A DNA stretch of 64,000 bases from Streptosporangiaceae bacterium (GCA_050011895.1 JBEKIF010000013.1:27744-91743); one strand, 5' to 3'; numbered from the stretch's first letter, positions 4,098 through 27,394 are shown. Translations and numbers: made by a program. The notes: generated from the letters alone by a model not told the origin.

Positions 4098-4103
4098 CGG
4101 AAC

Positions 4104-4511
4104 TCACTTCGTCCCTGCGCCGGTGGACACCGGCCGATGGGCCACAGTCAGGTGCTCGCCTACCCGTTTGACGAGAACCGCCATCTCATAAGCGACCAGA
4201 CCGGCGTCAGCCGAGGCCGTGGTCAGAACGGCGAGGCAGCTGCCCTCGCCGGCGGCGGTCACAAACAAGAACGCGAAATCCATTTCGACAATGGTCTGCC
4301 GCACGTTACCGCCGCCGAAATGCGCACCAGCCCCCCTGGCCAGGCTCTGGAAGCCGGCCGCGACCGCGGAAAGGTGCTCGGCGTCCTCTCGGCTCAGCCC
4401 GGCCGACGCGCCGATAGCAAGGCCGTCCCTGGACAGAATGGCGGCCTTGTCGATGTGGACGACCCTGGCGACCAGGTCATCGAGAAGCCAGTCAAGTTCG
4501 CTGACGCTCAT
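4104..4511 (-). CDS. cvnB: Roadblock/LC7 domain protein (CvnB-like)
   Basis: 135 aa with roadblock-like sequence (LDWLLDDLV...VVHIDKAAILSRDGLAIGAS...), immediately downstream of the sensor kinase. Confidence 0.7.
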   Translation of the reverse strand: MSVSELDWLLDDLVARVVHIDKAAILSRDGLAIGASAGLSREDAEHLSAVAAGFQSLARGAGAHFGGGNVRQTIVEMDFAFLFVTAAGEGSCLAVLTTASADAGLVAYEMAVLVKRVGEHLTVAHRPVSTGAGTK

Positions 4512-4553
4512 GGGATGCCCCCCTGGTGGTCTGGCCCGCTGCTGATTCGCGGG

Positions 4554-7330: not shown

Positions 7331-7560
7331 AGGCCGGGGTTCACGGAATCCCCCGAGTCTGATGCCACAGCCGAGAGTGCCATAGGCACCCAAATCATCC
7401 CAAGGTCGCTCAGGTTCTGAGTTCAGGGCTGCCAGGTGCGTGGCGGGAGGCCGACAAAAGTTGGTGCTGGCCACGCGAGGTCCGCCCGGATCCTGCCGAG
7501 GCCGGCTAGGTTGCCCCGGCCGGCTGGGATGCAGCCGAAGTCGGTGGGTTCTGGCTCGGC

Positions 7561-8988: not shown

Positions 8989-8989
8989 G

Positions 8990-10048: not shown

Positions 10049-11616
10049 CAGCTCGCACCGTGGTTGTCATCGGCGGCGGCCTGGCCGGCGTGACCGCAGC
10101 CATCGCGCTGCGTGAGGCAGGCATGGGCGTCACGCTGGTGGAGGCCCGGCCGTGGCTGGGCGGGGCAACGTGTTCCTTCTCCCGCGGCGGGCTGGTCATC
10201 GACAATGGCCAGCACGTGTTCCTGCGGTGCTGCACGGCCTACCGGGAGCTGCTGGCGAGGCTCGGCATGACGGGCTCCGCCACCATCCAGGAACGTTTTG
10301 ACGTCACCGTGCTGTCCGGGAGCGGCCGTGGCACACGTGGCCTAGGTGACCCCGCCGGTGCTGGCCGCGGCGCGGCTGCCGGCGGCGGTCCGGGCCAGGC
10401 CAGGCTACGGCGGACCGCGCTGCCTGGTCCGCTGCACATGGGCAAGGCGCTGTCCGGTTACTCCTTCCTTACCCCGGCGGAACGGCTCCAGGTGATCCGC
10501 GCCGCGCTCGCCATGCGGTTTGCCGATCCTGCCGCGGCCGAGCTGGACCGCCAGCGGCTCGGCGACTGGCTCGCCGCCAGGGGCCAAAGCGAGCGAGCCC
10601 GGCGCAGGCTGTGGGACCTCTTCATCGTCTCGGCGCTGAACATCAATGGCGACGACGCGAGCACGGCGCTGGCGGCGACCGTGATCAAGAAGGCACTGCT
10701 TGGCGGCAGGGCCGCGGCGGACGTCGGCGTGCCGGCCGTGCCGCTCGGCGAACTGCACGGGCGGGCCGCGGCCAGCCTGCTGGGCAGGCTCGGCGCGAAC
10801 GTGCGGCTCGGGACCAAGGTGACAGCGGTCGAGGCGGGGCCAGGCGGCGGGTTCCAGGTCCGGATCAGCTCGGGTACCGATGCGGCGGCCAGCAGGCCTG
10901 ATGGCGAGGAACCGGCTGGCGGCGCGGATGACCCGGTCGAGCGGCTGCCCGGCGATGGTGCAGGCACGCCCGGCAGCACGAACGGCGCGGTGATCAGCGC
11001 GGACGCGGTGGTGCTCGCGGTCCCGCACGGGCCGGCCGCACGCCTCGTGCCGGCCGCCGCGGCCAGCGGCTCCGCGCGGTGGGCGGAACTCGGTGCGGTC
11101 CCGATCGTGAACGTGCACGTCATCTACGACAGCAGGGTAACCAGGCTGCCGCTGGCCGCTGCGGTCGATTCGCCGGTTCAGTGGGTGTTCGACAAGACCA
11201 GGCCGGCAGGCGTGCAGACGGGCCAGTACCTGGCGGTGTCCGTATCTGCCGCGGACAGCTACATCGACGCCCCGGTCGCGAGGCTGCGGGAGCTGTTCCT
11301 GCCTGCGCTCGAAGAGCTCTTCCCCGCGGCGCGAGATGCCCGCGTTACCGATTTCTTTGTCACCAGGGAGCGGCGGGCGACGTTCCGCCAGGGACCAGGC
11401 TGCGGGTCGCTCCGCCCGGGCGCCGCGACCTCGTTGCCCGGATTCGCGCTTGCGGGCGCATGGACCGATACCGGCTGGCCAGACACGATGGAGGGTGCCG
11501 TGCGAAGCGGACACAGCGCTGCACAGGAACTGATCCGCCAGCTAACTGCCGTGCCTGCAGCGCAGCAGGCAGTTCCGGCGACCGCCGCGCAGGCGCCGGT
11601 CCGGGTCTCGTCATGA
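10045..11616 (+). CDS. hpnE: Hydroxysqualene dehydrogenase HpnE (FAD-dependent amine-oxidase family)
   Basis: Rossmann motif VVVIGGGLAGVTAAIAL at the N-terminus and conserved cluster position. It overlaps the hpnD stop by 4 bp. Confidence 0.85.
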   Translation: MTARTVVVIGGGLAGVTAAIALREAGMGVTLVEARPWLGGATCSFSRGGLVIDNGQHVFLRCCTAYRELLARLGMTGSATIQERFDVTVLSGSGRGTRGLGDPAGAGRGAAAGGGPGQARLRRTALPGPLHMGKALSGYSFLTPAERLQVIRAALAMRFADPAAAELDRQRLGDWLAARGQSERARRRLWDLFIVSALNINGDDASTALAATVIKKALLGGRAAADVGVPAVPLGELHGRAAASLLGRLGANVRLGTKVTAVEAGPGGGFQVRISSGTDAAASRPDGEEPAGGADDPVERLPGDGAGTPGSTNGAVISADAVVLAVPHGPAARLVPAAAASGSARWAELGAVPIVNVHVIYDSRVTRLPLAAAVDSPVQWVFDKTRPAGVQTGQYLAVSVSAADSYIDAPVARLRELFLPALEELFPAARDARVTDFFVTRERRATFRQGPGCGSLRPGAATSLPGFALAGAWTDTGWPDTMEGAVRSGHSAAQELIRQLTAVPAAQQAVPATAAQAPVRVSS

Positions 11617-12644
11617 CGGCCACGATCCCGGTGGGCGTCGAGGCAGCCCGCGACCTGGTCGGGCCGGCCTTCGGTGCGGCCCTTGAGCGGCTGAGCCCGG
11701 AAGTTCGCGTCGTCGCTGCCTATCACCTCGGATTCGGCGACGCGGACGGCAATCCGGCCGGGACTGACGGCCGTTCCGGTGCCGCGGGCAAGGCGCTTCG
11801 TCCCGCGCTCGCGCTGCTGTCGGCGCGGGCTGCGGGTGCCGCGCCGGAGCGTGCGGTCTGCGCGGCGGCGGCCGTCGAGTTCGTGCACAACTTCTCGCTG
11901 CTGCATGACGACATCATGGACGGTGACGTCGAGCGCAGGCACCGGCCGACGGCGTGGACCGTGTTCGGCACGGGTGCGGCCATCCTGGCCGGCGACGCCC
12001 TGCTCGCCCTGGCCCAGGATCTGCTGCTTGAGGGGCCCGCGCCGCAAAACCTGTGGGCGTCCCGCTGCCTGTCGGCCGCCGTCCAGCGGCTCATTGCCGG
12101 ACAGGGTGCCGACCTGGCCTTTGAGCGGCGCGATGACGTGTCCCTCGCCCAGTGCCTGGAAATGGCCGGGGACAAGACAGCCGCGCTGATGGCCTGCGCG
12201 TGCAGCATCGGCGCCATCTACGTCGGCGCCCCGCCGGCCCTGGCCATGGGACTGGCCGGTTTCGGCGCGCACGTCGGCCTGGCGTTTCAGCTCACTGACG
12301 ACCTGCTGGGCATCTGGGGCGCCGCCGAGACGACCGGCAAGCCGGTCCGGTCCGACCTGCGGGCCAGGAAGAAGTCGCTGCCCGTGGTCGCGGCACTGAC
12401 CAGCGGGACGCCGGAAGGCACTGAACTAGGCGCGCTGCTGGCCCGAGCCGAGCCACTCGATGAGGATGACCTGCTGCGCGCCGCGGACCTGGTCGCGACC
12501 GCGGGCGGGAAGAGCTGGACGGAGGCCGAAGCCGACGTGCAGCTGGCCTCGGCGAGCAAGTGCCTGGCCGAGACGGACATGCCGGACGATGTGCGGGCGG
12601 AGTTCACGGGGATCGCCGAGTTCATCACGGCGCGCCAATGGTGA
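11613..12644 (+). CDS. Polyprenyl diphosphate synthase (FPP/GGPP synthase family; HopD-like)
   Basis: Two aspartate-rich motifs, LLHDDIMDG and FQLTDDLLGIWG. The ATG at 11613 overlaps the hpnE stop (tcATGA). The ORF track starts at 11079, but that upstream part lies inside hpnE in another frame. Confidence 0.8.
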   Translation: MTATIPVGVEAARDLVGPAFGAALERLSPEVRVVAAYHLGFGDADGNPAGTDGRSGAAGKALRPALALLSARAAGAAPERAVCAAAAVEFVHNFSLLHDDIMDGDVERRHRPTAWTVFGTGAAILAGDALLALAQDLLLEGPAPQNLWASRCLSAAVQRLIAGQGADLAFERRDDVSLAQCLEMAGDKTAALMACACSIGAIYVGAPPALAMGLAGFGAHVGLAFQLTDDLLGIWGAAETTGKPVRSDLRARKKSLPVVAALTSGTPEGTELGALLARAEPLDEDDLLRAADLVATAGGKSWTEAEADVQLASASKCLAETDMPDDVRAEFTGIAEFITARQW

Positions 12645-12681
12645 CAGGCCTGGAGAGCAGCGAGATGACGGTGCTTCCCAT

Positions 12682-14796
12682 ATGACGGTGACGCAGGCCC
12701 GCCCGGCCGTGCAGGCCACGCAGGAGGCTGCGCGGACGGCGCTTGACCGGGCCGCCGGTCACCTGTCCGGCCTCCAGCATGAGCGCGGCTGGTGGCAGGG
12801 GGAGCTGGAAACCAACGTCACGATGGACGCGGAGGACCTGCTGCTCCGCGAGTTCCTCGGCGTGCGGACGGCGGAGCAGACCGCGGCGGCCGCCAGGTGG
12901 ATCAGGTCCAAGCAGCGGCCGGACGGGACCTGGGCCAACTACTACGACGGCACCCCCGACCTGTCCACCACGGTCGAGGCTTACGTGGCGCTGCGGCTGG
13001 CCGGCGACCCGCCAGGCGCAGCTCACATGGCCCGCGCCGCCAGCTGGATCACTGAGCGCGGCGGGATCGCGGCAACGCGCGTCTTCACCCGTATCTGGCT
13101 GGCCCTGTTCGGCGAATGGCCGTGGGATGACCTGCCGGTCATGCCACCGGAGATGATCTACCTGCCGACCTGGTTCCCGCTGAATGTGTACGACTGGGGG
13201 TGCTGGGCGCGGCAGACAATCGTCCCGCTGACCATCGTCGGCTCGCTGCGCCCGGTGCGGCCGCTGCCCTTCGGCCTCGACGAGTTGCGAGCCGGTGACT
13301 CGCGCCGGCCGGCCAGGCGCGGCTCGCGGGCCGGCTGGGCCGGGCTGTTCAACGGCATTGACCGGGGGCTGCACGTCTATCAGCGCTACGGCCTCAGGGC
13401 CGGGCCGGCGCGCGCGGCCAGGACGGCGGCCCTTCGCCGGTGCGCGGAATGGATAGTCGCGCGGCAAGAGCGGGACGGCTGCTGGGGCGGAATCCAGCCG
13501 CCGTGGGTCTACTCGCTGATCGCGCTCCACCTGCTGGGCTACGGGCTCGATCATCCCGTCATCCAGCGCGGTCTCGCGGGCCTGGACCGCTTCACCGTCT
13601 GGGAGGAGACCGCCGAGGGGCCGGTGCGCAGGCTGGAAGCATGCCAGTCGCCAGTCTGGGACACGGTGCTCGCGATGATCGCCCTCGCCGATGCGGGGCT
13701 GCCGCCAGACCATCCGGCGCTCCGGTCGGCGGCGCGGTGGGTGCTCGAGGAGGAGATCCGCGGGCCCGGCGACTGGCAGGTACGTCGGCCCGGGCTGGAA
13801 CCGGCCGGATGGGCATTCGAGTTCGACAATGACGGCTATCCCGACGTCGATGACACGGCGGAGGTGCTGCTGGCGCTGCGGCGGGTGGCGCTCACGGGCC
13901 ACCTGGGCTCAGCTGACGCCATGGAGCGGGCGGCTCGCTGGCTCACCGGGATGCAGTGCCGTGACGGCGGCTGGGCCGCCTTTGACGCGGACAACACCGG
14001 CACGCTGGTGACCAAGCTGCCGTTCTGTGACTTCGGCGAGGTCACCGATCCGCCGTCGGCTGACGTGACCGCGCACACCATCGAGGCCCTGGCAGCGGCA
14101 GGCCTGGCCGGGAGCAAGGCAGTGCGCAGGGGAGTGGCGTGGCTGCTGCGGGCCCAGGAGAGCGACGGTTCATGGTTCGGGCGCTGGGGCGCCAACTACC
14201 TGTACGGGACCGGTGCCGTGGTGCCCGCGCTGATCGCCGCCGGCGTGCTGCCAGGCAAGCCGCCGATCCAGCGGGCCATCGCGTGGCTGACCGCGCACCA
14301 GAATCCCGATGGCGGCTGGGGCGAGGACCTGCGTTCGTATGAGGACACAAGCCGGGCCGGCCGTGGCCCGTCGACCGCCTCGCAGACGGCGTGGGCGCTG
14401 CTGGCGCTGCTGGCCGTCGGAACGGCCGGAGGGGATGAGGCCGCGGTCAGCGTTGACCGGGGGGTGCGCTGGCTCGCCGAGACCCAGCGGCCGGACGGAA
14501 GCTGGGACGAGCCCCAGTACACCGGGACCGGGTTCCCCGGCGACTTCTACATCAACTATCACCTGTACCGGCTGGTCTTCCCGGTCAGCGCGCTTGGCAG
14601 GTTCCTGGGCGCCGCGGACCCGGCAGGCCAGGGCCCGCCCGGCCAGGAACCCCCCGGCCGAGGTCTGGGGGCTCCTGGGGTTGCGGGACGGGGGCTGGCC
14701 GGGCAGGAGCTTGCCGGGCAGGGGCTTGCGGACAACGAAGCAGCGGACCAGGGGCACGGATCAGCCGGCTACCGAGCAGCGGGCGGTGCGGCATGA
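12682..14796 (+). CDS. shc: Squalene-hopene cyclase (Shc/HpnF)
   Basis: Catalytic [10 protein letters not shown] (DxDD) motif and multiple QW repeats ([34 protein letters not shown]). The start was moved to the internal Met (MTVTQARP) because upstream ORF residues are Arg/Pro-rich overlap with the previous gene. It has an unusual ~60-aa Pro/Gly-rich C-terminal tail. Confidence 0.9.
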
Positions 14797-16340
14797 GCCC
14801 GGCCGCTGTGAGCAGGCCGGATGCGGCAGGCCGCTTGGTCGTCTGCTCGCCGCTGCGGCTGGAGGCCCGGGCGGTGCGTCGCGGCATCGGTGACAACGGC
14901 GAGGTCCTGCGGACCGGCTTCGGCGGCAGGAGATCCCTCGTAGCGGCCGACCGGCTGCGTGGCTCTGCGTTCGGGATGCTGGCGATCAGCGGTACTGGCG
15001 GGGGGCTTTCAGCAGACCTCAAGCCCGGTGATCTTGTGGTGGGGGCGGAGGTGGGCGCGCAAGGCAGCTCGCCAGCGGCCGCGCTCAGCTGCCCGTCGGC
15101 CCCGCTGCTGGCCGGCGAGCTGCGGCGGGCGGGCCTGCGTGCCCAGGCCGGCAAGATCGTCACTGTCGACCACCTGGTCCGCAGGTCAGAGCGGGCTCGG
15201 CTGGCCAGCGATGGCGCCGTCGCCGCTGACATGGAGTCCGCGATGCTGCTGACGGCTGCGGGCGGCCGCCCGTCGGTCGTGGTCCGGGCGGTCTCTGACA
15301 CCCCGGAGTGGCCGCTGCTGAGCCCGCGGGCGCTGGCAGGCGGCGCAGCGGCGCTCCGGTCGCTGAGGCTGGCTGGCCCCGTTCTGACCAGGTGGGCAGC
15401 CGCGGGCGGCCAGCGGCGCGTGCTGCTGGCCGGTCCGCGGTCATTCTGCGCCGGGGTGGAGCGGGCGATCGAGATCGTCGACCGGATGCTGGACCGGCGC
15501 GCCCAGCCGGTCTACGTCCGAAAGCAGATCGTGCACAACTCCCATGTGGTGACCGGCCTCGAGCGGCGCGGCGCGGTCTTCGTCGATGAGCTGAGCGAGG
15601 TACCCGACGACGCGACCGTGGTGTTCTCCGCGCACGGGGTGTCGCAGGCGGTGCGGACCGAGGCCGCGCGTCGCGGGCTCGACGCGATCGACGCGACCTG
15701 CCCGCTGGTCGCGAAGGTGCACGCCGAGGCCCGCCGGTTCGTGGCCGAGGGTTACCAGGTAGTCCTGATCGGCCATGCCGGGCACGAGGAGGTCGACGGC
15801 ACGCTCGGCGAGGCGCCCGGCGCCATAGTGCTGGTCGAGAGCGTCGAGGACGTGGCCAGGCTGCGGCCGGCCGACCCGGCCAAGATCGCCTACCTGATGC
15901 AGACGACGCTGTCCGCCGACGAGGCCCGCGAGATCGTCGACGCGCTGCATGAGAGGTTCCCCGCGGCCCGCGGACCGGGCAGCGACGACATCTGCTACGC
16001 CACGACCAACCGGCAGCTGGGGGTCCGCGCCGTGGCCCGCGAGGCCGACCTGGTGCTTGTCGCCGGCTCGGCCAACTCATCCAACTCGGTTCGCCTGGTC
16101 GAGACCGCGCAGCGGGCTGGCACCCCGGCATACCTCATCGACGGCCCGGAAGACATCGAGCTCAGCTGGCTCGCCGGGGCGTCCGTAGTCGGGGTTACCG
16201 CAGGAGCGTCCGCGCCGCCCGCGGCGGTCGGGCAGATCGTCGCGGCCCTCTCCGGTCTCGGCCCCATCGAGGTCAGCGAGCGCATCGTCGCCACCGAGTC
16301 CATCCGGTTCAGCCTTCCCAAGGAGGTCAGGCCAGCATGA
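14793..16340 (+). CDS. ispH: In-frame fusion of an HpnG-like nucleosidase (PNP/MTA-nucleosidase fold) with 4-hydroxy-3-methylbut-2-enyl diphosphate reductase IspH (LytB)
   Basis: The first ~205 aa resemble a hopanoid-associated nucleosidase ([16 protein letters not shown]...[14 protein letters not shown]). The rest is IspH ([43 protein letters not shown]). There is a single ORF with no stop or frameshift at the junction (..[24 protein letters not shown]..). Confidence 0.75.
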
Positions 16341-17338
16341 CCATGCCACTGCGCCAGAGCGTGCGCGTCGGCGCCTACCTGATGCGCCAGCGGCTAGCCA
16401 GGCGGGAGAAGTTCCCGCTGCTCGTCGAGCTTGAACCGTTGTTCGCCTGCAATCTCGCCTGCGCCGGCTGCGGCAAGATCCAGCACCCGGCCAGCGTGCT
16501 GAAGCAGCGGATGCCGGTGGAGCAGGCGCTCGCTGCCATCGAGGAATGCGGCGCGCCGATGGTGTCGATCGCCGGCGGCGAGCCGCTCATGCACCCCGAG
16601 ATCGACAAGCTCGTCGCAGAGCTGATCAAGCGAAAGAAGTACGTGTTCCTGTGCACGAATGCGCTGCTCATCCCTAAGAAGCTGGACAAGTTCACGCCGT
16701 CGCGCTACTTCGCCTGGGCGGTCCACATCGACGGGCTGGCCGAGCGGCACGACGCGTCGGTGTGCAAGGACGGCGTCTTCGACGATGCCGTCGCCGCGAT
16801 CAGGGAGTGCCAGCGGCGCGGCTTCCGGGTGACCACGAACACGACCTTCTTCAACACCGACACCCCGCAGACCGTCATCGACGTACTCGACTACCTCAAC
16901 GACGACCTCAAGGTCGACGAGATGATGATCTCCCCGGCGTATGCCTACGAGAAGGCACCCGACCAGGAGCATTTCCTCGGCGTCACGGAGACCCGCGAGC
17001 TGTTCCGCAAGGCGTTCGGCGACGGCAACAGGAAGCGGTGGCGGCTCAACCACTCACCGCTGTTCCTGGACTTCCTCGAAGGCAAGGCCGACTTCTCCTG
17101 CACCGCGTGGGGGATCCCGTCGTATTCGCTGTTCGGCTGGCAGCGGCCGTGCTACCTGATGAACGACGGGTACGCCAAGACCTACCAGGAGCTGGTCGAG
17201 ACCACCGACTGGTCAAAGTACGGCCGCGGGGCCGACCCCAGGTGCGCGAACTGCATGGCGCATTGCGGGTATGAGCCGTCCGCCGTGCTCGCCACGATGG
17301 GGTCGCTGCGGCAGTCGATCCGGGCGCTGCGCGGCTGA
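16337..17338 (+). CDS. hpnH: Adenosylhopane synthase HpnH (radical SAM)
   Basis: [14 protein letters not shown] (CxxxCxxC radical-SAM cluster motif) and a C-terminal Cys-rich region ([12 protein letters not shown]). It lies immediately after ispH, as in Streptomyces hopanoid clusters. Confidence 0.85.
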
Positions 17339-17380
17339 CACGGCGCTGCTGGCACGGCGCTGCTGGCACGGCGCTGCTGG
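17339..17380. repeat. 14-bp direct repeat x3 (acggcgctgctggc) immediately after the hpnH stop
   Basis: Read directly: cacggcgctgctggcacggcgctgctggcacggcgctgctgg. Confidence 0.6.
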
Positions 17381-17383
17381 GCA

Positions 17384-19075
17384 GTGTCCGCTGCTGCCTG
17401 CCAATCCATGGAGGCCCGACTCGTGACCCCTCGCAACACCCCGCCGCTGCTGGCGCCTTCGGCCGGCCCGGTCGCGGCCGCGGATGCCGGGACCGTCGGG
17501 GGGCCGCCGTTCGACGGCGGCCCGTTGTGGATGCGGGTGGTGCCGTCGCTGGTCATGCTCGGCTTGGCCCTGTGGGACATCACCGGGCCCTCCTACTGGC
17601 GGGACGAGGGCGCGACGCTGGCCGCGGTGCAACGCCCCTTCGGCCAGCTGGTGCGGATGATGGGCCACGTCGATGGGGTGCACGGCGTCTACTACATGAT
17701 CATCTGGCCGCTGGTGCGGGTGGCCGGCACCGGCGAGCTCGTCACCCGGCTGCCGTCGGCCCTGGCGATGGCGGTGGCGGCTGGGCTGGTGGCCGCGATC
17801 GGCCGGCGGCTCGTATCGCTGCCCGCCGGGCTGGCCGCCGGCCTGGTCTTCGCGGTGCTGCCGCAGATCAGCCTCTACGGGCAGGACGCCAGGTCCTATG
17901 CGATGGTGACCGCGTTCGGGACAGCGGGGAGCTACCTGCTGCTGCGGGCGATCGGCGCCCCGGGCCGCCGGCGGGGCTGGCTGGCCGGATACGCGGCGTG
18001 CATGGCAGCGATGGGCGCCCTGAATATCTTCGGGATCCTGCTGCTCGCGGCGCATGCGGTGACGGTCGCGCTGGCCTGCCTGCGCCGGGACGACGGCCGG
18101 GTCCGGTTGTCGGTGGCCGGGCTGCGCGGCGGGGAGGGCAGGGAGGGCGGGAAAAGCAGGGAGGGCGGCGGGGCCGTCAGGTCGCTGGCGCTCGGCTGGC
18201 TGGCCGCGGCCGCAGTGGCAGTGTTCGTGGCCAGCCCGGTACTCCTGCTCGGCATCGAGCAGCGCGGCGCGGTCAGCTGGATCAAGGCCCCGGGACCTCG
18301 CACGGTTGCGACCCTGTGGCAGCTGGTGGGGCCGCAGGCCATGGTCATCGCCATTTGCCTGCTAGCCGGCTGCGGGCTGGCGGCCAGCGCGCTCGCGGGC
18401 CGGGTGGCACTGCGGGCCAGCTGGCCGGCGATGCTGCCCGTGCTATCCGTTCCGTGGCTGCTGGTTCCTCCGGCGCTGCTGATCGGTGTCTCTTTCGCGC
18501 TGCCGCTCTACGTGCCCCGCTACATCCTGTACTGCCTGCCTGCGGTGGCGCTGCTGGCGGGCGCGGGGCTGGCCGCGCTCGGCCAGGCCGTCGGCACCGG
18601 GCTCGGCCGGGCGCCCGAGGCTGGGCTTGCCGCGCTCGGCTGGGCGACCGGCGCGGCCGCGCTGGCCGTGATCGCGGTGCTCGGATTCGGCGTACAGGTC
18701 AGCGAGCGCGGCCCGGCCGGCCACAACGACAACATCCGCCGCGGCGACCAGATCGTGGCGGCCAACATGCGGCGAGGCGACGCCGTCCTCTATGAGACAT
18801 TTGACAATCTCTGGGCCGCCTATCCGTACGGGCTGGCCAGGCTCGCCGACATCGCCCAGTACCAGACGCCTGCCCAGTCAGCGACGCTGGCCGGGACCGT
18901 CTTGCCTCCGGCGGTGGTCCGGCAGCGGATCGCGAGCACCTCCAGGCTGTGGGTCGTCGAACTGCGCCATCGCTCGCAGGTGCCGCTCCTGCAAGGGCTT
19001 GACCTGCGGCTCATCGGGACCTGGCACACCGCCGGCTTGTGGTTGTTCCTTTACGCGCACCGCTCGGCGTTCTGA
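17384..19075 (+). CDS. GT-C superfamily membrane glycosyltransferase (PMT/ArnT-like, GT39/GT83-type), paralog 1
   Basis: A first TM helix is followed by the loop YWRDE (the DE motif diagnostic of GT-C PMT/ArnT enzymes), then multiple TM helices over ~560 aa. It contains a Gly/Arg/Glu-rich low-complexity loop (GLRGGEGREGGKSREGGG). The true start may be an internal Met. Confidence 0.7.
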   Translation: MSAAACQSMEARLVTPRNTPPLLAPSAGPVAAADAGTVGGPPFDGGPLWMRVVPSLVMLGLALWDITGPSYWRDEGATLAAVQRPFGQLVRMMGHVDGVHGVYYMIIWPLVRVAGTGELVTRLPSALAMAVAAGLVAAIGRRLVSLPAGLAAGLVFAVLPQISLYGQDARSYAMVTAFGTAGSYLLLRAIGAPGRRRGWLAGYAACMAAMGALNIFGILLLAAHAVTVALACLRRDDGRVRLSVAGLRGGEGREGGKSREGGGAVRSLALGWLAAAAVAVFVASPVLLLGIEQRGAVSWIKAPGPRTVATLWQLVGPQAMVIAICLLAGCGLAASALAGRVALRASWPAMLPVLSVPWLLVPPALLIGVSFALPLYVPRYILYCLPAVALLAGAGLAALGQAVGTGLGRAPEAGLAALGWATGAAALAVIAVLGFGVQVSERGPAGHNDNIRRGDQIVAANMRRGDAVLYETFDNLWAAYPYGLARLADIAQYQTPAQSATLAGTVLPPAVVRQRIASTSRLWVVELRHRSQVPLLQGLDLRLIGTWHTAGLWLFLYAHRSAF

Positions 19076-19164
19076 CCAGCGGGCACCGGGCATACTATGG
19101 GAGTCGCCGCCGCGCTTCGCTATGTGGTCGCTTTATGCGCCCACGCTGATCGCGGGAGGACACC

Positions 19165-20835
19165 ATGACGTCGTCTGGGAGCCGGACTGTGCTCGGCCGG
19201 GCGCCGCAACCCAGCGGCGGCGGGCGAGACGGCTACACCGGCGGTCCGGCCTGGATGTGGTTCCTGCCGCCCGTCCTGATGCTCGGGCTGGGGCTCTGGG
19301 ACATCACGAGACCGTCATACTGGCGTGACGAGGCCGCGAGCCTGACGGCGGTGCACCGTTCCTTTGCCCAGCTCGTGCGGACGCTGGGCCATGTGGACGC
19401 GGTGCACGGCGTCTACTACATGATCATGTGGCCGGTGGTCCGGGTGGCAGGCTCGGGCGAGCTGGTCACCAGGCTGCCCTCGGTGGTCGCGATGGCGGTG
19501 GCCGCCGCCGGGGTGGCCGCGCTCGGCCGCCGGCTGGTCTCGCCCGCCGCCGGTCTGGCCTCCGGCCTGATTTTCGTGATATTGCCGCAGATCAGCCGGT
19601 ACGCGCAGGACATGAGATCGTATGCGATGGTGGCCGCGTTCGGGACAGTGGCTACCTACCTGCTGGTGCGGGCGATCGGCACCTCCGGCCGCAAGCGCGG
19701 CTGGCTGGCGGGGTACGCGGGGTGCATGGGGGTGATGGGCGCCCTGAACATCTTCGGGATCCTGCTGCTCGCCGCGCACGCGGTAACGGTGGCGCTGGTG
19801 TGCCTGCGCCGCGATGACGGCAGTGTCCGGCCGTCGCTGGCCCGACTGCGCGGCGAGCGGGGCGGGGACGGCGGGAAAGGCGGGGACGGCAGGGAAGGCG
19901 GGGACGGCAGGAAAGGCGGGGAAGGTAAGGCCGCGCGATCGCTGGCGGCCGGGTGGGTCGCCGCTGCCGTCGTGGCGGTAGCGCTGGCCAGCCCCATAAT
20001 CCTGCTCGGCATCGCCCAGCGCCAGACCGCCAGCTGGATCAAGCCCCCTGGGCTGCAGACGTTTGTGAAGCTGACGCAACTGGTGGGCCCGCTGCCGATG
20101 GCGGCGGCGGTGGTGCTTGCCGTGGCGCTCGGACTGGCCGCCAGCGCAGCCTCGGGACGCGCCGCGCTGCTGGCCGCCTGGCCCAGGCGGCTGCCCGCGG
20201 TGGCCGTTCCGTGGCTGGTCGTCCCCCCGGCGCTGCTGATCGGTGTCTCGTTCGCGCTGCCGCTCTACGTGCCCCGCTACATCCTGTACTGCCTGCCTGC
20301 GGTGGCGCTGCTGGCGGGCGCGGGGCTGGCGGCGCTCGGCCAGGCCGTCGGCACCGGGTTCGGCCGGGCGCCCGAGGCCGGGCTTGACGTGCTCGGCTGG
20401 GCGACCGGCGCGGTGGCGCTGCTGTTCATCGCGGTACTCGGGCTCAGCGCCCAGGAGGCTTTCCGCGCCCCGGCCGGCCACGGAGACAACATCCGCCGCG
20501 TCGACAGCATCATCGCCGGGCAACGGCGTCCCGGGGACGCCGTGATCTACGTCGGCTGGGACGCTCACTACTTCACCGCCGCCTACCCTTACGGGCTCCC
20601 GCAGCTGGACAACGTCGGGCAGGACAAGACACCCGCCCAGGCGGCCAACCTGACCGGGACCACGTGGCCAGCCGCGGTGGTGCGGCAGCGGCTGGCCGGC
20701 ATCTCCAGGGTCTGGCTCGTCGACGCGTCCGGTTACCCGAAATCGCGGGTCTTGTCCGGGCTCCACGTCACGCGCCTGCGGGCCTGGCAGATTGGCAAGA
20801 TCTGGCTCGTTCTCTACCAGCAAAAGCCGGTGTGA
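19165..20835 (+). CDS. GT-C superfamily membrane glycosyltransferase, paralog 2
   Basis: Has the same architecture as paralog 1, and its DITRPSYWRDE block and long stretches are near-identical to it. It carries a repeat loop (ERGGDGGKGGDGREGGDGRKGGEGK) encoded by a DNA tandem repeat at ~19857-19925. Confidence 0.7.
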   Translation: MTSSGSRTVLGRAPQPSGGGRDGYTGGPAWMWFLPPVLMLGLGLWDITRPSYWRDEAASLTAVHRSFAQLVRTLGHVDAVHGVYYMIMWPVVRVAGSGELVTRLPSVVAMAVAAAGVAALGRRLVSPAAGLASGLIFVILPQISRYAQDMRSYAMVAAFGTVATYLLVRAIGTSGRKRGWLAGYAGCMGVMGALNIFGILLLAAHAVTVALVCLRRDDGSVRPSLARLRGERGGDGGKGGDGREGGDGRKGGEGKAARSLAAGWVAAAVVAVALASPIILLGIAQRQTASWIKPPGLQTFVKLTQLVGPLPMAAAVVLAVALGLAASAASGRAALLAAWPRRLPAVAVPWLVVPPALLIGVSFALPLYVPRYILYCLPAVALLAGAGLAALGQAVGTGFGRAPEAGLDVLGWATGAVALLFIAVLGLSAQEAFRAPAGHGDNIRRVDSIIAGQRRPGDAVIYVGWDAHYFTAAYPYGLPQLDNVGQDKTPAQAANLTGTTWPAAVVRQRLAGISRVWLVDASGYPKSRVLSGLHVTRLRAWQIGKIWLVLYQQKPV

Positions 20836-20930
20836 CTGACAGGATCCATCCCGGGCATAATGCCGTAGTACAGACCACGCCCGTCTGAGGCGCTTGCGGT
20901 CGCTACTGCCTGCTTAGTCCGGAGGATGCC

Positions 20931-22565
20931 ATGACGCCGCCTGCTACCCGGGCCCCGCTGGCCCGGGCGCCCGGGGCGGCTGCCAGGCCTCCCGTGCGGC
21001 CGGGCCGGGCCTACGACGGCGGCCCGGTGTGGATGTGGCTGGTACCGCCGGTCGTGACGCTGGCGGTCACGCTGTGGGGGATTACCGGTTCGTCGTACTG
21101 GCGGGATGAGTCGGCGACGCTCGCGGCGGTGCATCGCCCCTTCACCCAGCTGATCCGGATGCTCGGTCACGTGGACGCGGTACATGGCGCCTACTACGTG
21201 ATCATGTGGCCGCTGGTGCGGGTGGCCGGCAGCAGCGAGCTGGTGACGCGGCTGCCGTCCGCGGTGGCGATGGCGGCGGCGGCGGGGCTGGTGGCGGCGC
21301 TCGGCAGGAGGCTGGTGTCGCCGTCGGCGGGGCTGGCTTCCGGGCTGGTCTTCGCCGTGCTGCCGGCGGTCAGCCTATACGGGCAGGATGCCCGCTCGTA
21401 TGCGCTGGTGACGGCGGCGGCGGCAGGAGCGAGCTACCTGCTGGTCCGGCTGATCACAGCGACCGGCGGCAGGCTTGGCTGGCTGGCCGGGTACGGAGCG
21501 TGCCTGGCGGCCGTCGGCCTGCTGAACATCTTCGGGCTGCTCCTGATCGGCGCGCACGCGGTGACTGTCGCGACGGCCTGCCTGCGCCGGGCCGGCCGGC
21601 CGGCCCGGCGGTCGCTGGCGCTGGGCTGGCTGGCCGCCGCAGCCGCGGCAGCGGCGGTGACCAGCCCCATCGTGCTGCTGGCCTGGACCGAGCGCAGCCA
21701 GCTGGCCTGGCTCACTAAGATCAGCCAGATCCAGAGCCTGGTGGCGCTGCTCGGCGCGGGGGAGATGCCCGTCGCGCTCTGCGTCATCGTCGCTTGCGGC
21801 GTGCTGGCGAGCGCGCTGAGCGGGCGGGCCGCGCTGCGGGCAGGCTGGCCGCTGATGCTGCCCGCGCTCGCCGTGCCCTGGCTCGTCGTGCCGCCTGCGC
21901 TGCTGATCCTGATGTCGCGGTTCACGCCCCTTTACACGTTCAGGTACGTGGTGTTCTGCCTGCCAGCCGGAGCCCTGCTGGGCGGCGCGGGACTGGCCGC
22001 GGTCGGCCGCGCGATAGCCACCGGCCTGGGATGGGCGCGCGGCCGGGCAGACGGCGGGGGGGACGGCCGGGGGCCGGGCGCGGGGCAGGCCGGGTGGGGC
22101 CGCTGGCCGCGGGTGGCGCTGACTGCACTGGGCTGGGTTACCTGCGCTGCCGCGCTGGCGATGGTGGCGCTCTTCGGGCTCGGTGCGCAGCGCAGCGCGC
22201 GCGCGGCCAACGGTCACCTGGACGATATCCGGCGCGCGGACCAGATCGTCGCCGCGAACATGCGGCCCGGTGATGCCGTCATCTACGACACGCCAGCGGA
22301 TGAGAACCTGCGGACCGCCTATCCCTACGGGATGGGCAAGCTGACCGATATCACGCAGGCGCAGTCGCCTATCCAGTCCGGGACGCTGTCCGGGACCAGC
22401 CTGCCATTGGCGGCGGTGCGGCAGCGGGTCGGCGGCGTCTCCAGGCTGTGGGTCATCGAGGTGCACCAGGTCACGCAGCTGCCGGTGCTGCAGGGCCTCG
22501 GGCTGCGGCAGCTGCGGGTCTGGCACCCGGCCAACCTGTGGCTGTTCCTCTACCTCGTGCACTGA
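20931..22565 (+). CDS. GT-C superfamily membrane glycosyltransferase, paralog 3 (more diverged)
   Basis: Has the SSYWRDE motif and the same TM topology. Its Gly/Arg-rich insertion is at a different position (GRADGGGDGRGPGAGQAGWGR). Confidence 0.7.
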   Translation: MTPPATRAPLARAPGAAARPPVRPGRAYDGGPVWMWLVPPVVTLAVTLWGITGSSYWRDESATLAAVHRPFTQLIRMLGHVDAVHGAYYVIMWPLVRVAGSSELVTRLPSAVAMAAAAGLVAALGRRLVSPSAGLASGLVFAVLPAVSLYGQDARSYALVTAAAAGASYLLVRLITATGGRLGWLAGYGACLAAVGLLNIFGLLLIGAHAVTVATACLRRAGRPARRSLALGWLAAAAAAAAVTSPIVLLAWTERSQLAWLTKISQIQSLVALLGAGEMPVALCVIVACGVLASALSGRAALRAGWPLMLPALAVPWLVVPPALLILMSRFTPLYTFRYVVFCLPAGALLGGAGLAAVGRAIATGLGWARGRADGGGDGRGPGAGQAGWGRWPRVALTALGWVTCAAALAMVALFGLGAQRSARAANGHLDDIRRADQIVAANMRPGDAVIYDTPADENLRTAYPYGMGKLTDITQAQSPIQSGTLSGTSLPLAAVRQRVGGVSRLWVIEVHQVTQLPVLQGLGLRQLRVWHPANLWLFLYLVH

Positions 22566-22804
22566 GGCCGCCACGGGCGGCCCGAGATGGTGCCTGGACG
22601 GCAACTCGGGCGGACGGCGAACCGGACGGCGAGCCGGGCGGCCGGGACGGCGAATCCGGCAACCTCGCAGTCCCCCTTCAGGATCCATTCAGAATCCATC
22701 GCCATCATGATGACCGGCGCATGTCTTGCGCCCGGCGCGGATAACCCGCCGCCGTCAAGAGCCCGGCGCACCTGGCCAGGCCCGCGGTTTGCCGAGGAGC
22801 CCGA

Positions 22805-24316
22805 ATGTTCTTTACCTACCTCCGGCGTGAGCTGCGCCGGCGGATGCGCCAGGCCATCTTGATCTCGCTAGGCCTCGCGGTCGGGATCGGGCTGGTCATC
22901 ACGGTGACGGCGCTATCGACCGGAGTGAAGGACGCGCAGGGCACGGTACTGCACTCGCTCTACGGCGTCGGCACCGACATCACCGTGTCGCAGGCGCCCG
23001 CGGCCGGCTCGGCAGGCGGTTTCGGGGTCGGATTCAGCGGATCCGCTGGCTCGCGCACCCGGCCCGCGCCCGGAACCACCATCCACGCGAATACGCTGCG
23101 CGCGTTCGCCTTGGCGCCGCTGGACTCCTCGGCAGTGACGGCCATCGCCAAGATGCCGAACGTCGCCGGCGCGGCAGGCGGGCTGACGCTCACCGACTCG
23201 ACGGTGTCGGGGAAGATCCCGTCGTTCTCCGCGGGCGGCGGCGGATTCGGCGGTGGCGGCGGCAGCGGCGGCAGTGGCGGCGGGTTCCGCGGAGCGTTCA
23301 ACGTCAGCTCGTTCGGGGTGCAGGGAGTCGACATATCCGAGGGTGAACTCGGGCCGCTCAGCTCCGGCAAGATCACCACAGGCCGCACTTTCACCGCCGC
23401 GGACGCCAATTCGAGCGTCGCGCTGCTTGACTCCACCTACGCGACGCAGCAAAAGCTCAAGCTCGGCTCCGCGGTTACGGTGGCCGGCCAGAGCTTCAAG
23501 GTGATCGGCATCGTCGCGGAGCCACAGGGCGCGAGTCCGTCCGATGTCTACATCCCGCTGGCCAAGGCGCAGAGCCTGACCACCCCCAGCCTGACCGGCA
23601 AGGTCAACTCGATCTATGTGGCCGCCGCCAGCGCCTCGGATATCACCCCGGTGTCGAAGGAGATCTCCAAGGCGCTGCCCAAGGCCACGGTGACGACGTC
23701 AAGTGATCTGGCCAGCGAGGTGACCGGCTCGCTCGCCAGCACCTCCAGCCTGGCCAACAACCTAGGGAAATGGCTGGCGATCGCGGTGCTCATCGTCGCG
23801 TTCCTGGTGGCCAGCCTGCTGACCATGGCGGCGGTCTCGCGCCGGGTCAGGGAGTTCGGCACCCTCAAGGCCCTCGGCTGGCGCAGCCGGCGCGTGATCG
23901 GCCAGGTCATGGGTGAGTCCCTGGTGATCGGCATCGCGGGCGGGATCATCGGCGTGGGGCTCGGCTACCTCGGCACGACCCTGATCACCAGGCTGTCATC
24001 GCCGCTGACCGCGTCGATCGGCCAGACGACCGGCAGCGCGACTCCCGGCGGCGCCCGCGCCTTCGGCGGGGGCGGTGGCGGTGGCGGCGGGTTCGGTGGC
24101 GGTGGCGGTGGCGGCGGCGGGTTCGGCGGCGGCTTCCGGCGGTTCGCCGCAACCGCGGCTCACACCGTGGACGTGCACCTCACCGCGCCGATGACGATCG
24201 GCATTGTCATCGCCGCGGTGCTGCTGGCGATCGCCGGCGGCCTGATCGCCGGACTATTCGGCGGCTGGCGCGCGGCGCGGCTCAGACCCGCCGCGGCGCT
24301 GGCGCGGGTCGAGTAG
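22805..24316 (+). CDS. ABC transporter permease, FtsX/MacB-like, with a large extracytoplasmic domain
   Basis: TM1 (ILISLGLAVGIGLVITVTAL) is followed by a long periplasmic domain, then three C-terminal TM helices (FtsX fold). Two Gly-rich inserts, GGGGFGGGGGSGGSGGGF and GGGGGGGGFGGGGGGGGGFGGGF, are present. Confidence 0.7.
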   Translation: MFFTYLRRELRRRMRQAILISLGLAVGIGLVITVTALSTGVKDAQGTVLHSLYGVGTDITVSQAPAAGSAGGFGVGFSGSAGSRTRPAPGTTIHANTLRAFALAPLDSSAVTAIAKMPNVAGAAGGLTLTDSTVSGKIPSFSAGGGGFGGGGGSGGSGGGFRGAFNVSSFGVQGVDISEGELGPLSSGKITTGRTFTAADANSSVALLDSTYATQQKLKLGSAVTVAGQSFKVIGIVAEPQGASPSDVYIPLAKAQSLTTPSLTGKVNSIYVAAASASDITPVSKEISKALPKATVTTSSDLASEVTGSLASTSSLANNLGKWLAIAVLIVAFLVASLLTMAAVSRRVREFGTLKALGWRSRRVIGQVMGESLVIGIAGGIIGVGLGYLGTTLITRLSSPLTASIGQTTGSATPGGARAFGGGGGGGGGFGGGGGGGGGFGGGFRRFAATAAHTVDVHLTAPMTIGIVIAAVLLAIAGGLIAGLFGGWRAARLRPAAALARVE

Positions 24317-24361
24317 ACCGGCCACCTGAGCAGACCGACCGGACACCGAGGAGAGAAGACC

Positions 24362-25201
24362 ATGTACAAGCTGACCGGCGTGACCAAGGTCTACCAGAAG
24401 GGCCGGACTCCGGTGCACGCGCTGCAGGGCGTGGACGTGGTGATCGAGGACGGCGAGTGGCTGGCGATCCAGGGCCCCACCGGGCACGGCAAGACCACGC
24501 TGCTGCAGATGCTCGGCGGCCTGGACCGGCCCACGTCAGGAACCATCGAATTCGACGGCCAGGACCTGGCGCAGATGCGGGAGAGCCAGGTCACGAAGGT
24601 GCGGGCCACCTCGATCGGGTTCATCTTCCAGACCTTCAACCTGATTCCGACGCTGAGCGCGCAGGAGAACGTGGAGACCGCGCTGGTGCCGTTGCACGTG
24701 AGCGCGGGGGAGCGGCAGGCGAGGGCCCGGCAGGCGCTGGAGGACCTCGGACTCGGGGACCGGCTCAGGCACCTGCCCGCCGAGCTGTCCGGCGGCCAGC
24801 AGCAGCGGGTCGCGATCGCCCGGGCGCTGGTGAAGGAGCCCAAGGTGCTTTTGGCCGACGAGCCGACCGGCAACCTTGACGAAGGGACCAGGGACGAGAT
24901 CATCGGGCTGCTGGAGAAACTCTGGCGGGACCGCGGCCTGACCATGGTCCTGATCACTCATGACAGCTCCATCGCGCGGCGGGCCGAGCGGGTCGGCGTG
25001 ATGAAGGGCGGCAAGCTGACCATCAAGCAGGACACCAGGCGCCGGGCAGCGGGAAGCCGGCAGGCCGGGGCCAGCGTGGCCGACCAGTACCCGGCACCCG
25101 TGGACGATGCGGCCGGGGTCAGCGAAGCGGGCGTCAGCGGAGCCGGGCAGTACCCGGCACCCGGGGACGACGCGGTGGGAGCCGAGCGGATCGAGTTCTA
25201 G
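24362..25201 (+). CDS. ABC transporter ATP-binding protein (MacB/LolD-type)
   Basis: Walker [10 protein letters not shown], signature [15 protein letters not shown] and Walker [12 protein letters not shown]. The C-terminal ~60 aa is a duplicated low-complexity tail ([35 protein letters not shown]). Confidence 0.85.
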
Positions 25202-25255: not shown

Positions 25256-27394
25256 TCAGGACCGGGGCAGCGACAGCTCGCACCAGACGACCTTGCCCGA
25301 TGCCGTCCGCCTGGCGCCCCAGCGCTGCGCCAGCTGGCTGACGACCTGCAGGCCCCGGCCGCGCTCCTCCTCGGCGCCCGGGTGCCTGAGCCTGGGCAGT
25401 GCGGCGGAGTTGTCGAACACCTCGCAGACCAGTCCCTCCTCCAGCACCAGGCGGAGTCCGATCGGCCCCTGGGCGTACCGCACCGCGTTGGTAACCAGCT
25501 CCGAAACGAGCAGCTCGGCGAGGGGGATCAGGTCGGCCAGGCCCCAGCGGCGGAGCGGCCGGCCGATCAGGAAGCGCGCCCGGCGGGACGCGGTCAGCTC
25601 GGCGCGCAGGGTCCACGTGACATGGTGGTCCGCCGGGAGCTTGCGCAGCCTGGCGATCAGTACCGCGATGTCATCGCGCTGATGATCTGAGTAGACACCG
25701 TCCAGGGTGGCCTTGCAGAGATCCTCTAGCGGGCGGTCGGCGGAACCAGGGCCGAAAACCTCGCGCAGCCTGGTCAGACCCTCGTCGATGTCGGCGGTGC
25801 GCTTCTCGACGAGCCCGTCGGTGTAGAGCACGAGCAGGCTGCCGTCCTCGATGTCGAGCGTCCTGCTCTCGGTGGGCCCGGCGCCGATGCCGAGCGGCGG
25901 GGCCGGCAAGACGTCGAGGAACTCGTTGGTGCCATCGGGCCGGACCAGCAGCGGCGGCAGGTGGCCGGCCGAGGCGACCTCGCAGGTCCCCGTCACTGCG
26001 TCGAAGATCGCGTAGATGCAGGTGGCGAAGTGCGGCTCGCGTACGCCAAGCTCCTGCATCAGCTCGTCAAGCTGCTGCAACGTCTCGACGGGCGGCAGCT
26101 CGAGCCGGGCGAGGGTGTGGATGGCGGTCCGCAGCCTGCCCATCGTGACCGCCGCGTGCACGCCGTGGCCTGCCACGTCACCGACGACAAGAGCGACCCG
26201 GCCGCCGGGCAGCGCGATCGACTCATACCAGTCGCCGCCGACCTCGATCAGCTTGCTGCCCGGCAGGTAGCGGTGGCGCACCTCAACCGAGGACGGCGCG
26301 GACAGCCCGGTCGGCAGCAGGCTGCGCTGCAGGGTCAGGGCGGTGGCCCGCTCCCTGGAGTACCTGCGGGCGTTGTCCATGAAGATCGCCGCGCGGGTGG
26401 CGAACTCCATGCCGATCTCAGTGTCGTAGGCATCGAACCGGCGGTAGCCCGCCTTCCTGATGCACACCAGGAAGCCGAGCATGGTGTCCCTGGCGACCAG
26501 CGGCAGCAGCAGCATCGAGACGCCGGACAGCAGCCTGGCCACCGGCTTGCGCAGCCAGGAGTTCGCGATGCGGGTGGCGGTGTCGGCCGCCACGCTAACC
26601 TCGCGGACCGGCTGCTCGGTGTCCATGCACGTCGTATACGGCGTTCCCGGCGGGTAGCGGAGGATCTCGCCGACCGGGAAGGCGGCTTCCCAGCCCGGAT
26701 CGCCGTCGTCGTGGGCGATCGCCAGCCGCCGGACCGCGTGCGACCCGTGGAGTTCGTCGGCGGGCGGGTCGTCCCCGCCGACCAGGCTCTCCAGCACCAG
26801 CAGGCCGCTCGCGTTGCAGAAATGCGGAACGATGATATTGATCAGCTCAGGTGCCATCTGATCGAGGTCGAGCGCCCCCCCGGTCCTGCGCACAGCGCCG
26901 TCAAGCAGCGCATGCCGCATCACGGCCGGATCGAGGAACCGGCCCTCGGACAGCGGCGCGATCCGGAGGATCACCAGCGCGGCGAGGTCAGCGTCGGCGG
27001 ACCGGACCGGCTGGACGGTGACCACCGCGTCGGCGTGGTCACCGTTGCCCAGCCTGATCGTCAGCACGGCGGTGCCCTCGCGATCGGCACAGGCCGAGCC
27101 GATGAGCTCGGTCAGCGCCACGACGTGCGCGGGGTTGGTGATCAGGCGGCCGAGTTCGACCCCGAGCAGCGCGCCAGGACCGCTGCCGAGTACCTCGGCA
27201 GCGTTGCGGTCATGCTGCAGGATCCGGCCGGCCTTGTCGATACCGAGGATCAGGGTCCGCGCGGAGGTGTTCGACACGAGCGCTGGGAAATCGGACGCCG
27301 TTCCGGCTGGCATGACCCGGTGCACTCCCTTCGGCGCGAGGCATGACCTGTTCGCCTCATTATGAAGCAGGTTCCCGCACATTGAGCAGAACAA
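25256..27394 (-). CDS. Multidomain regulator: PAS/GAF sensor, PP2C (SpoIIE) phosphatase and HATPase_c (RsbW-like kinase)
   Basis: PP2C block GGDWYESIALPGGRVALVVGDVAGHGVHAA...LYTDGLVE. HATPase block ELVTNAVRYA...GRGLQVVSQLAQRWG. The true start may be the internal Met28 (MPAGTASD). Confidence 0.7.
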   Translation of the reverse strand: MFCSMCGNLLHNEANRSCLAPKGVHRVMPAGTASDFPALVSNTSARTLILGIDKAGRILQHDRNAAEVLGSGPGALLGVELGRLITNPAHVVALTELIGSACADREGTAVLTIRLGNGDHADAVVTVQPVRSADADLAALVILRIAPLSEGRFLDPAVMRHALLDGAVRRTGGALDLDQMAPELINIIVPHFCNASGLLVLESLVGGDDPPADELHGSHAVRRLAIAHDDGDPGWEAAFPVGEILRYPPGTPYTTCMDTEQPVREVSVAADTATRIANSWLRKPVARLLSGVSMLLLPLVARDTMLGFLVCIRKAGYRRFDAYDTEIGMEFATRAAIFMDNARRYSRERATALTLQRSLLPTGLSAPSSVEVRHRYLPGSKLIEVGGDWYESIALPGGRVALVVGDVAGHGVHAAVTMGRLRTAIHTLARLELPPVETLQQLDELMQELGVREPHFATCIYAIFDAVTGTCEVASAGHLPPLLVRPDGTNEFLDVLPAPPLGIGAGPTESRTLDIEDGSLLVLYTDGLVEKRTADIDEGLTRLREVFGPGSADRPLEDLCKATLDGVYSDHQRDDIAVLIARLRKLPADHHVTWTLRAELTASRRARFLIGRPLRRWGLADLIPLAELLVSELVTNAVRYAQGPIGLRLVLEEGLVCEVFDNSAALPRLRHPGAEEERGRGLQVVSQLAQRWGARRTASGKVVWCELSLPRS

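Follow-up and report, generated by a model that had tools for sequence, protein, structure and literature searches.

The described systems closest to the locus analyzed here concern envelope glycans and hopanoids. In Mycobacterium tuberculosis, CapA/Rv1635c (MT1671) is a polyprenyl-phosphate-mannose-dependent alpha(1->5)-mannosyltransferase which adds the first mannose cap to lipoarabinomannan (PMC3229680). HpnI is the only described hopanoid side-chain glycosyltransferase, converting bacteriohopanetetrol (BHT) to BHT-N-acetylglucosamine; it is usually encoded in hopanoid biosynthesis (hpn) clusters and works and travels with HpnK and HpnJ (PMC12583986). A microsynteny survey around shc, the squalene-hopene cyclase (SHC) gene, reported hpnL, hpnM, hpnS, and hpnT, and not GT-C or FtsX families, and found HpnH in Actinomycetota together with none of the known downstream modification enzymes (10.1101/2025.07.29.667474). 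Since HpnI is the only known hopanoid glycosyltransferase and the survey is without GT-C families, a hopanoid-linked GT-C module would be new. In the present study we analyzed a 64,000-nucleotide stretch of DNA from Streptosporangiaceae bacterium (GCA_050011895.1 JBEKIF010000013.1:27744-91743; the window below) in which an hpn cluster is followed by three tandem genes for GT-C glycosyltransferases (GT-C1, GT-C2, and GT-C3) and by an FtsX/MacB-type permease and ATP-binding cassette (ABC) ATPase pair (FtsX-ABC). A first-pass annotation, made from the sequence alone, had proposed that these genes glycosylate a hopanoid, another envelope lipid, or a protein and export the product, as a candidate hopanoid/envelope tailoring system, and had known of no described hopanoid-linked GT-C module; none was found in the literature searched here either.

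On balance, we think that the three genes are probably tandem duplicates of a resident envelope GT-C glycosyltransferase and that the hpn cluster and FtsX-ABC are separate neighboring units, not parts of a hopanoid-tailoring system. According to this proposal, the GT-C slot is a conserved chromosomal position, flanked by a conservon operon on one side and by the gene for a SpoIIE-type phosphatase on the other, and copy number would have risen from one to two to three within the lineage by tandem duplication. The hpn cluster and the FtsX-ABC operon adjoin the GT-C genes in one uncultured Streptosporangiaceae clade only. The adjacency is not taken to mark a functional module because hpn, GT-C, and transporter genes come and go independently.

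The synteny pattern carries most of this argument. The window was compared with 92 related loci, some identified through homologs on long contigs and the others by scanning species-representative genomes; in that scan at least 594 loci encode relatives, and the best 80 of these were used. Window genes were mapped onto the loci by tblastn, trees were built by neighbor joining without support values, and a tree of the SpoIIE protein served as a proxy for host relationships at the site. About 26 loci have an hpn cluster, one to three GT-C genes, FtsX-ABC (in most of the loci), and a convergent SpoIIE gene (where the contig reaches it), in this order; their source genomes are those of uncultured Streptosporangiaceae from soil or of unclassified Actinomycetota. 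In the SpoIIE tree the hpn-positive loci fall into a single clade, and the adjacency therefore counts as roughly one evolutionary event, a historical juxtaposition kept within that clade whose three components are separable. Copy number (1, 2, or 3) follows subclades in the same tree.

The sister clade to the hpn-positive loci in the SpoIIE tree consists of 12 loci, every one of which has exactly one GT-C gene and neither hpn genes nor FtsX-ABC at the site, in the order conservon, GT-C, SpoIIE, and siderophore-interacting protein. L020 and L040, which were viewed in detail, carry a SpoIIE-domain gene, the conservon operon, GT-C, a SpoIIE/GAF gene, and the siderophore-interacting protein gene, the same backbone as that of the window. 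The sister-clade GT-C genes are intact, with ratios of nonsynonymous to synonymous substitution (dN/dS) of 0.11-0.22, and their products group within the hpn-adjacent GT-C clade in the neighbor-joining tree, which is without support values.

Two loci bear on the history of the site. In L024, one of the 12 sister-clade loci, an intact open reading frame (ORF) of 697 amino acids (positions 7264-9357) lies directly upstream of GT-C, exactly at the position of the hpn cluster, and encodes an SHC-like protein. Its identity to SHC is 37-40%, its match to the C-terminal cyclase domain is incomplete, and the DxDD catalytic motif was not seen in the aligned stretch; the ORF is either a relic of a lost hopanoid cluster or a repurposed protein. 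In L035, a gene for an HpnE-like amine oxidase (6896-9019; 48% identity) is the sole hpn-type gene between the conservon kinase and the GT-C, FtsX, and ABC genes. Because of the relics in L024 and L035, the most economical reading is that an hpn cluster was once at the site and was probably lost while GT-C stayed under selection. With L035 added to the 12 sister-clade loci, an orthologous GT-C gene without an adjacent hpn cluster is found in 13 loci.

An hpn cluster without GT-C genes was found as well. L092 has a full hpn cluster (5544-14642), including an HpnG/IspH fusion gene and hpnH, with an SHC 79% identical to that of the window, and it has no GT-C or transporter gene in its neighborhood; genes for TetR and a wax-ester synthase lie upstream, and those for SBP56, DUF5134, rhodanese, and cysteine dioxygenase lie downstream. 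FtsX-ABC is missing from L014, L059, L016, and L022 despite the presence of both hpn and GT-C genes, and therefore at least three losses of the transporter have taken place. Beyond these loci, no hpn genes were found within 10 kb of family loci in Streptomyces, Actinomadura, Nonomuraea, Microbispora, Amycolatopsis, and Cryobacterium (30-36% identity). Closer paralogs adjoin leuA, trpBA, methylmalonyl-CoA mutase, lysS, or NlpC/P60 genes, and L036 has three tandem GT-C copies with no hpn genes nearby. Linkage to shc and hpnH was thus confined to one clade and did not recur in independent lineages.

The spacers and the sequences upstream of the genes were also compared. Neighboring hpn genes overlap by 4 nucleotides (nt) or abut, whereas the gaps before GT-C1, GT-C2, GT-C3, and FtsX are 84, 89, 95, and 239 nt, respectively. 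The spacer between hpnH and GT-C1 is filled by three tandem copies of the 14-nt sequence CACGGCGCTGCTGG (17341-17382). In the relatives L003-L005 this spacer is 220-330 nt long and contains a conserved -10-like box, GGTAGGCTACGGT; the window is without the box, the stretch having been lost. In the hpn-less clade, CGTGGCTACGATTGGG lies upstream of the first GT-C gene and is similar to the box of these relatives. The three-copy subclade comprises the window, L003, L004, and L005; in its members a GGGCATA(A/C)T box is kept in otherwise variable spacers, about 65-75 nt before the start codons of GT-C2 and GT-C3, except that L005 shows a single substitution before GT-C3. GT-C3 has a conserved GGGCATAATGCCGTAGTAC box upstream. 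The alignments showed that -10-like boxes are kept upstream of GT-C genes, those of hpn-less loci included; a fixed-motif search for such boxes over all loci recovered the three-copy subclade only, and the alignments were more useful.

The block upstream of FtsX is kept in 19 of the 19 loci compared and comprises, in order, three direct repeats of TTC(G)CAG type with a spacing of about 11-13 nt, the sequence CCATCAT, and a GC-rich hairpin, ACCGGCGCA-N6-GCGCCCGG. It looks like a response-regulator binding site plus promoter and is a candidate promoter/operator. The GGGCATAAT boxes and a position at about 22.70 kb are putative internal transcription starts. The gaps and the conserved upstream boxes together suggest a separate promoter for each unit. 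Rfam gave no match in 7-26 kb, the block upstream of FtsX included, and the RNA fold of the hpnH-GT-C1 spacer was no better than that of shuffled sequence (z 0.95). A terminator scan returned 5 sites versus 4.3 expected, none of them between hpnH and GT-C1, and is uninformative for a high-GC actinomycete (the GC content is 64-75% across 2-kb windows of the stretch).

The genes themselves agree well with the first-pass annotation, which had reported three consecutive paralogs of about 550 amino acids after hpnH, each of GT-C type with a YWRDE loop after the first transmembrane segment (TM1), followed in the same orientation by a MacB-type permease and ATPase. All of these genes were confirmed from ORF coordinates, on the plus strand. 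The exception was the beginning of the region, which had been set at 17384: an ORF does open there, but the true start of GT-C1 is probably the GTG at 17423, because a GGAGG lies 8 nt upstream of it and the N terminus then aligns with those of the paralogs and orthologs. In the three-way alignment the other two paralogs are 62-65% identical to GT-C1, and pairwise identities are 56-64%. SYWRDE follows the first hydrophobic helix and is identical in all three paralogs, and the Y, W, R, D, and E of its core do not vary among the 28 family members aligned. The dN/dS values of the three paralogs versus their orthologs were 0.25-0.43, indicating purifying selection; these are therefore real genes and not chance ORFs, and for the same reason all three are likely functional. 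GT-C2 is identical to an NCBI-listed protein from a Streptosporangiaceae metagenome-assembled genome. A Gly/Arg/Asp-rich insert was observed in a loop of GT-C1 and GT-C2 (columns ~235-272 of the paralog alignment), where model confidence is low; it is absent from GT-C3.

PMT_2 (PF13231) is the sole Pfam match in each paralog, at 25-35 bits, and the PMT (PF02366), PMT_4TMC, GT87, and Emb models matched none of the paralogs even at an E value of 10. The only curated NCBIfam model matching all three is NF052499, the CapA/Rv1635c model, with 120, 139, and 137 bits (E values of 1e-35 to 1e-40) versus an equivalog cut-off of 900. The match is in the N-terminal part, which includes the acidic loop; for GT-C3 it covers profile positions 43-351 of 523, and the best stretch for GT-C1 and GT-C2 covers positions of about 45-212 only. 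GT-C2 has an additional, much weaker match to Agl23. With scores so far below 900 bits, assignment as CapA equivalogs was rejected, and the paralogs are distant homologs only. Canonical Pmt/GT39 membership was also rejected, as PF02366 and PMT_4TMC are unmatched. The three genes are new, uncharacterized members of a known enzyme superfamily, next to a transporter of a known type and an ordinary hopanoid cluster.

These matches bear directly on the idea that the paralogs are protein O-glycosyltransferases which mannosylate secreted or membrane proteins in the manner of Pmt/GT39, each with a separate set of targets. The NCBI protein name, "glycosyltransferase family 39 protein," and PMT_2 as the only Pfam match are consistent with it; nevertheless, we regard it as unlikely, given the failure of both PF02366 and PMT_4TMC and the fact that the nearest curated model is that of a lipoglycan mannosyltransferase, CapA (PMC3229680). 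The first-pass annotation had itself raised the prospect of conserved housekeeping protein O-mannosyltransferases at unrelated loci in relatives. What stands of this is the distribution, since the family is widespread at unrelated loci in relatives, while the enzymes are not canonical Pmt proteins.

A structure model of GT-C2 has a polytopic membrane domain of ~430-450 amino acids and a C-terminal domain of ~120-150 amino acids. The membrane domain is structurally similar to solved GT-C enzymes, with sequence identity to ArnT (GT83), AftA (GT85), Pmt (GT39), and STT3/AglB of only 8-16%, and the GT-C fold assignment is solid. A profile of the 28 family members found no solved relative by sequence in the PDB; fold comparison alone succeeded. 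No single solved GT-C family is closest, as there is a near-tie among protein-, lipid-, and glycan-acting enzymes, and therefore the fold gives no acceptor class.

By analogy of fold and motif with all characterized GT-C enzymes, we propose that each paralog would take a sugar from a polyprenyl-phosphate-sugar donor at the outer face of the membrane and hand it to an extracytoplasmic acceptor. The donor would most plausibly be polyprenyl-phosphate-mannose. The positively charged N terminus suggests that the SYWRDE loop faces outward, and the Asp-Glu of this loop may be a catalytic or donor-binding pair. Since CapA, the nearest curated relative, mannosylates a lipoglycan, the acceptor would most probably be a glycoconjugate of the envelope, for example a lipoglycan or a wall glycopolymer. 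Lipoarabinomannan is a glycoconjugate of the Corynebacterineae and is not expected in Streptosporangiaceae; therefore, the acceptor must differ from that of CapA. Different linkages or different acceptors are probable for the three enzymes, and a hopanoid acceptor has a low probability. Among the sampled neighbors of family members, no polyprenyl-phosphate-sugar synthase or other recurrent partner gene was found.

By its domains, FtsX-ABC is a MacB-type (type VII) ABC transporter, the MacB_PCD, FtsX, and ABC_tran scores all being above the gathering scores. The translated permease has the layout TM1, an extracytoplasmic domain of ~280 amino acids, and three transmembrane segments with Gly-rich loops, and its NCBIfam matches are weak ones to ADOP and LolCE only. 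For the ATPase, the LolD, YbbA, MacB, and DevA types score 200-217 bits, and none of these matches reaches its equivalog cut-off. An adaptor gene of the MacA/DevB type was not found in the locus, which comprises the transporter pair, the GT-C genes upstream, and the convergent SpoIIE-type gene as the next gene downstream. Low-complexity inserts, either Gly/Arg/Asp-rich or poly-Gly, were observed in FtsX at residues ~140-165 and ~410-445.

Several points weigh against the reading of separate units. Adjacency and shared orientation are unbroken in the ~26 hpn-positive loci, despite GT-C protein identities that have fallen to 41-57%, and such persistence exceeds that of usual neutral synteny. Read-through from hpnH into GT-C1 is plausible in the window, because the box has been lost, just 84 nt separate the two genes, and the scan showed no terminator between them. 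The absence of hpn genes was read at the GT-C site only, so that independence from hopanoids as such is not proven. Finally, no gene for a polyprenyl-phosphate-mannose synthase was found among the window ORFs scanned.

The conserved order in one clade and the short gap without a recognizable terminator would fit a module in which the GT-C enzymes glycosylate bacteriohopanetetrol or ribosylhopane on the outer leaflet with a polyprenyl-phosphate sugar and the MacB-type transporter extracts or exports the product. Lipid-anchored cargo is extracted by transporters of MacB type, LolCDE among them. Small secreted molecules can be acceptors of GT-C enzymes, for example of Ram29 (PMC4635501), and the Actinomycetota are reported to have HpnH without the known downstream tailoring enzymes (10.1101/2025.07.29.667474). 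We nevertheless consider this module quite unlikely, and a single tailoring and export system is not supported: orthologous GT-C genes are under purifying selection where adjacent hpn genes are absent (the 12 sister-clade loci) or decayed, the hpn cluster of L092 has neither GT-C nor transporter, repeated losses of the transporter are seen, the upstream boxes favor separate transcription, family members lie at housekeeping loci, the juxtaposition has not recurred independently in other lineages, and the shc microsynteny survey reports no PMT_2 or FtsX families (10.1101/2025.07.29.667474).

A version restricted to the hpn-positive clade appears very unlikely. In it, extended hopanoids (ribosylhopane or bacteriohopanetetrol) on the outer leaflet would be glycosylated by the GT-C enzymes from a polyprenyl-phosphate sugar, and hopanoids or hopanoid glycosides would leave the membrane through the transporter; here the hpn-less sister clade would reuse the enzyme otherwise or make hopanoids from genes elsewhere in the genome. 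If true, it would be the first GT-C-dependent route of hopanoid tailoring and would provide the first candidate for a transporter of hopanoids in a bacterium with a single membrane. Little is understood of how actinomycetes tailor and traffic hopanoids, and a hopanoid-linked GT-C/exporter module would matter for membrane biology and for the reading of hopanoid biomarkers. Tailoring of a secreted natural product, with the paralogs mannosylating an exported metabolite like Ram29, Dbv20, Tcp15, and MppH/I and the ABC transporter as exporter, is most improbable: the Ram29-like architecture of membrane and C-terminal domains and the occurrence of such enzymes in actinomycete antibiotic producers (PMC4635501) are set against a 64-kb window whose only scaffold genes are those of hpn, with no nonribosomal peptide synthetase (NRPS) or polyketide synthase gene, against a slot in the conserved core genome, and against the housekeeping genes beside which family members lie.

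Under the preferred reading of duplicated envelope glycosyltransferases beside separate units, the locus illustrates that a long-lived adjacency inside a single clade can mimic a functional module. It also adds to a large actinobacterial GT-C subfamily without a characterized member and provides candidates for the synthesis of envelope glycoconjugates in non-mycolate actinomycetes.

The coordinates of the features are collected in Table 1. Within the hpn cluster, one ORF encodes a complete IspH/LytB fused to a nucleoside phosphorylase domain of HpnG-like type. The phosphorylase domain matches PNP_UDP_1 at residues 65-169 and TIGR03468 at 56.8 bits versus a cut-off of 187. HpnG/IspH fusion genes encoding 502-515 amino acids were called in at least seven relatives (L003, L004, L005, L008, L089, L091, and L092), and no description of this fusion was found in the literature searched. 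Between hpnC and the conservon kinase gene there is a minus-strand ORF of 210 amino acids (7301-7933), which is divergent from the hpn genes and has no Pfam match. The conservon-type operon and two SpoIIE/PP2C phosphatase genes (2047-7142 and 25256-27394) flank the region and form the backbone that is common to the hpn-less relatives. Farther downstream on the minus strand (46433-51074), a UDP-glucose/GDP-mannose dehydrogenase gene adjoins two genes for right-handed beta-helix proteins, and these may be a polysaccharide-related cluster.

Table 1. Features of the locus, with positions counted from the first nucleotide of the window
Feature	Coordinates	Strand	Basis or remark
Conservon-type operon (NIT histidine kinase, Roadblock, DUF742, ATP_bind_1)	3131..7142	-	Upstream backbone marker
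Whole hpn cluster, hpnC to hpnH	7990..17338	+	Pfam/NCBIfam matches, ORF coordinates
hpnC	7990-8988	+	Pfam/NCBIfam matches
hpnD	8990-10048	+	Pfam/NCBIfam matches
hpnE	10045-11616	+	Pfam/NCBIfam matches
Polyprenyl synthase	about 11613-12644	+	Pfam/NCBIfam matches
shc	about 12682-14796	+	Pfam/NCBIfam matches
HpnG-like/IspH fused ORF, 515 aa	14793-16340	+	Pfam/NCBIfam matches
hpnH	16337-17338	+	TIGR03470, 534 bits
hpnH to GT-C1 spacer, 84 nt	17339..17422	+	Sequence; alignment with L003-L005
GT-C1	ORF opens 17384; likely 17423..19075	+	PMT_2; 563 aa as ORF, 550 aa from GTG 17423
GT-C2, 556 aa	19165..20835	+	PMT_2; SYWRDE at residues 51-56; paralog used for structure model
GT-C3, 544 aa	20931..22565	+	PMT_2; most diverged paralog
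Conserved block ~110 nt upstream of FtsX	22640..22740	+	Alignment of 19 loci
FtsX/MacB-type ABC permease, 503 aa	22805..24316	+	Pfam MacB_PCD 58.8 bits, FtsX 54.4 bits
ABC ATPase partner, 279 aa	24362..25201	+	ABC_tran 127.9 bits
PAS/GAF/SpoIIE(PP2C)/HATPase_c protein	25256..27394	-	Downstream backbone marker, convergent with ABC gene

Compared with the known systems, the paralogs have their fold in common with ArnT, AftA, Pmt, and STT3/AglB at the low identities given above (8-16%). The likeness to embCAB of mycobacteria (GT53) that the first-pass annotation had drawn holds for tandem GT-C paralogs arising by duplication and not for the proteins, whose membership in the Emb arabinosyltransferases was rejected because they are without the N- and C-terminal Emb domains and are not about 1100 amino acids long. 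FtsX-ABC resembles MacB, LolCDE, and DevCA in having a four-TM permease with a large extracytoplasmic domain and a separate LolD/MacB/DevA-like ATPase; it differs in that its matches are far below the equivalog cut-offs, the locus is without a MacA/DevB-like adaptor gene, and the host actinomycete is presumed to have a single membrane. HpnI is not of the GT-C fold and uses a nucleotide sugar as donor, and no match to HpnI, hpnK, or hpnJ was found among the window ORFs scanned. Ram29, Dbv20, Tcp15, and MppH/I are actinomycete GT-C enzymes with a C-terminal extracytoplasmic domain and set a precedent for a small-molecule acceptor (PMC4635501), but their genes lie inside NRPS clusters, and the likeness is one of described architecture. 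CapA differs from the paralogs in that they match its model partially and at 120-139 bits versus 900, and it is like them in its GT-C fold, in its setting among actinobacterial envelope glycans, and in the N-terminal acidic loop to which the paralogs match (PMC3229680).

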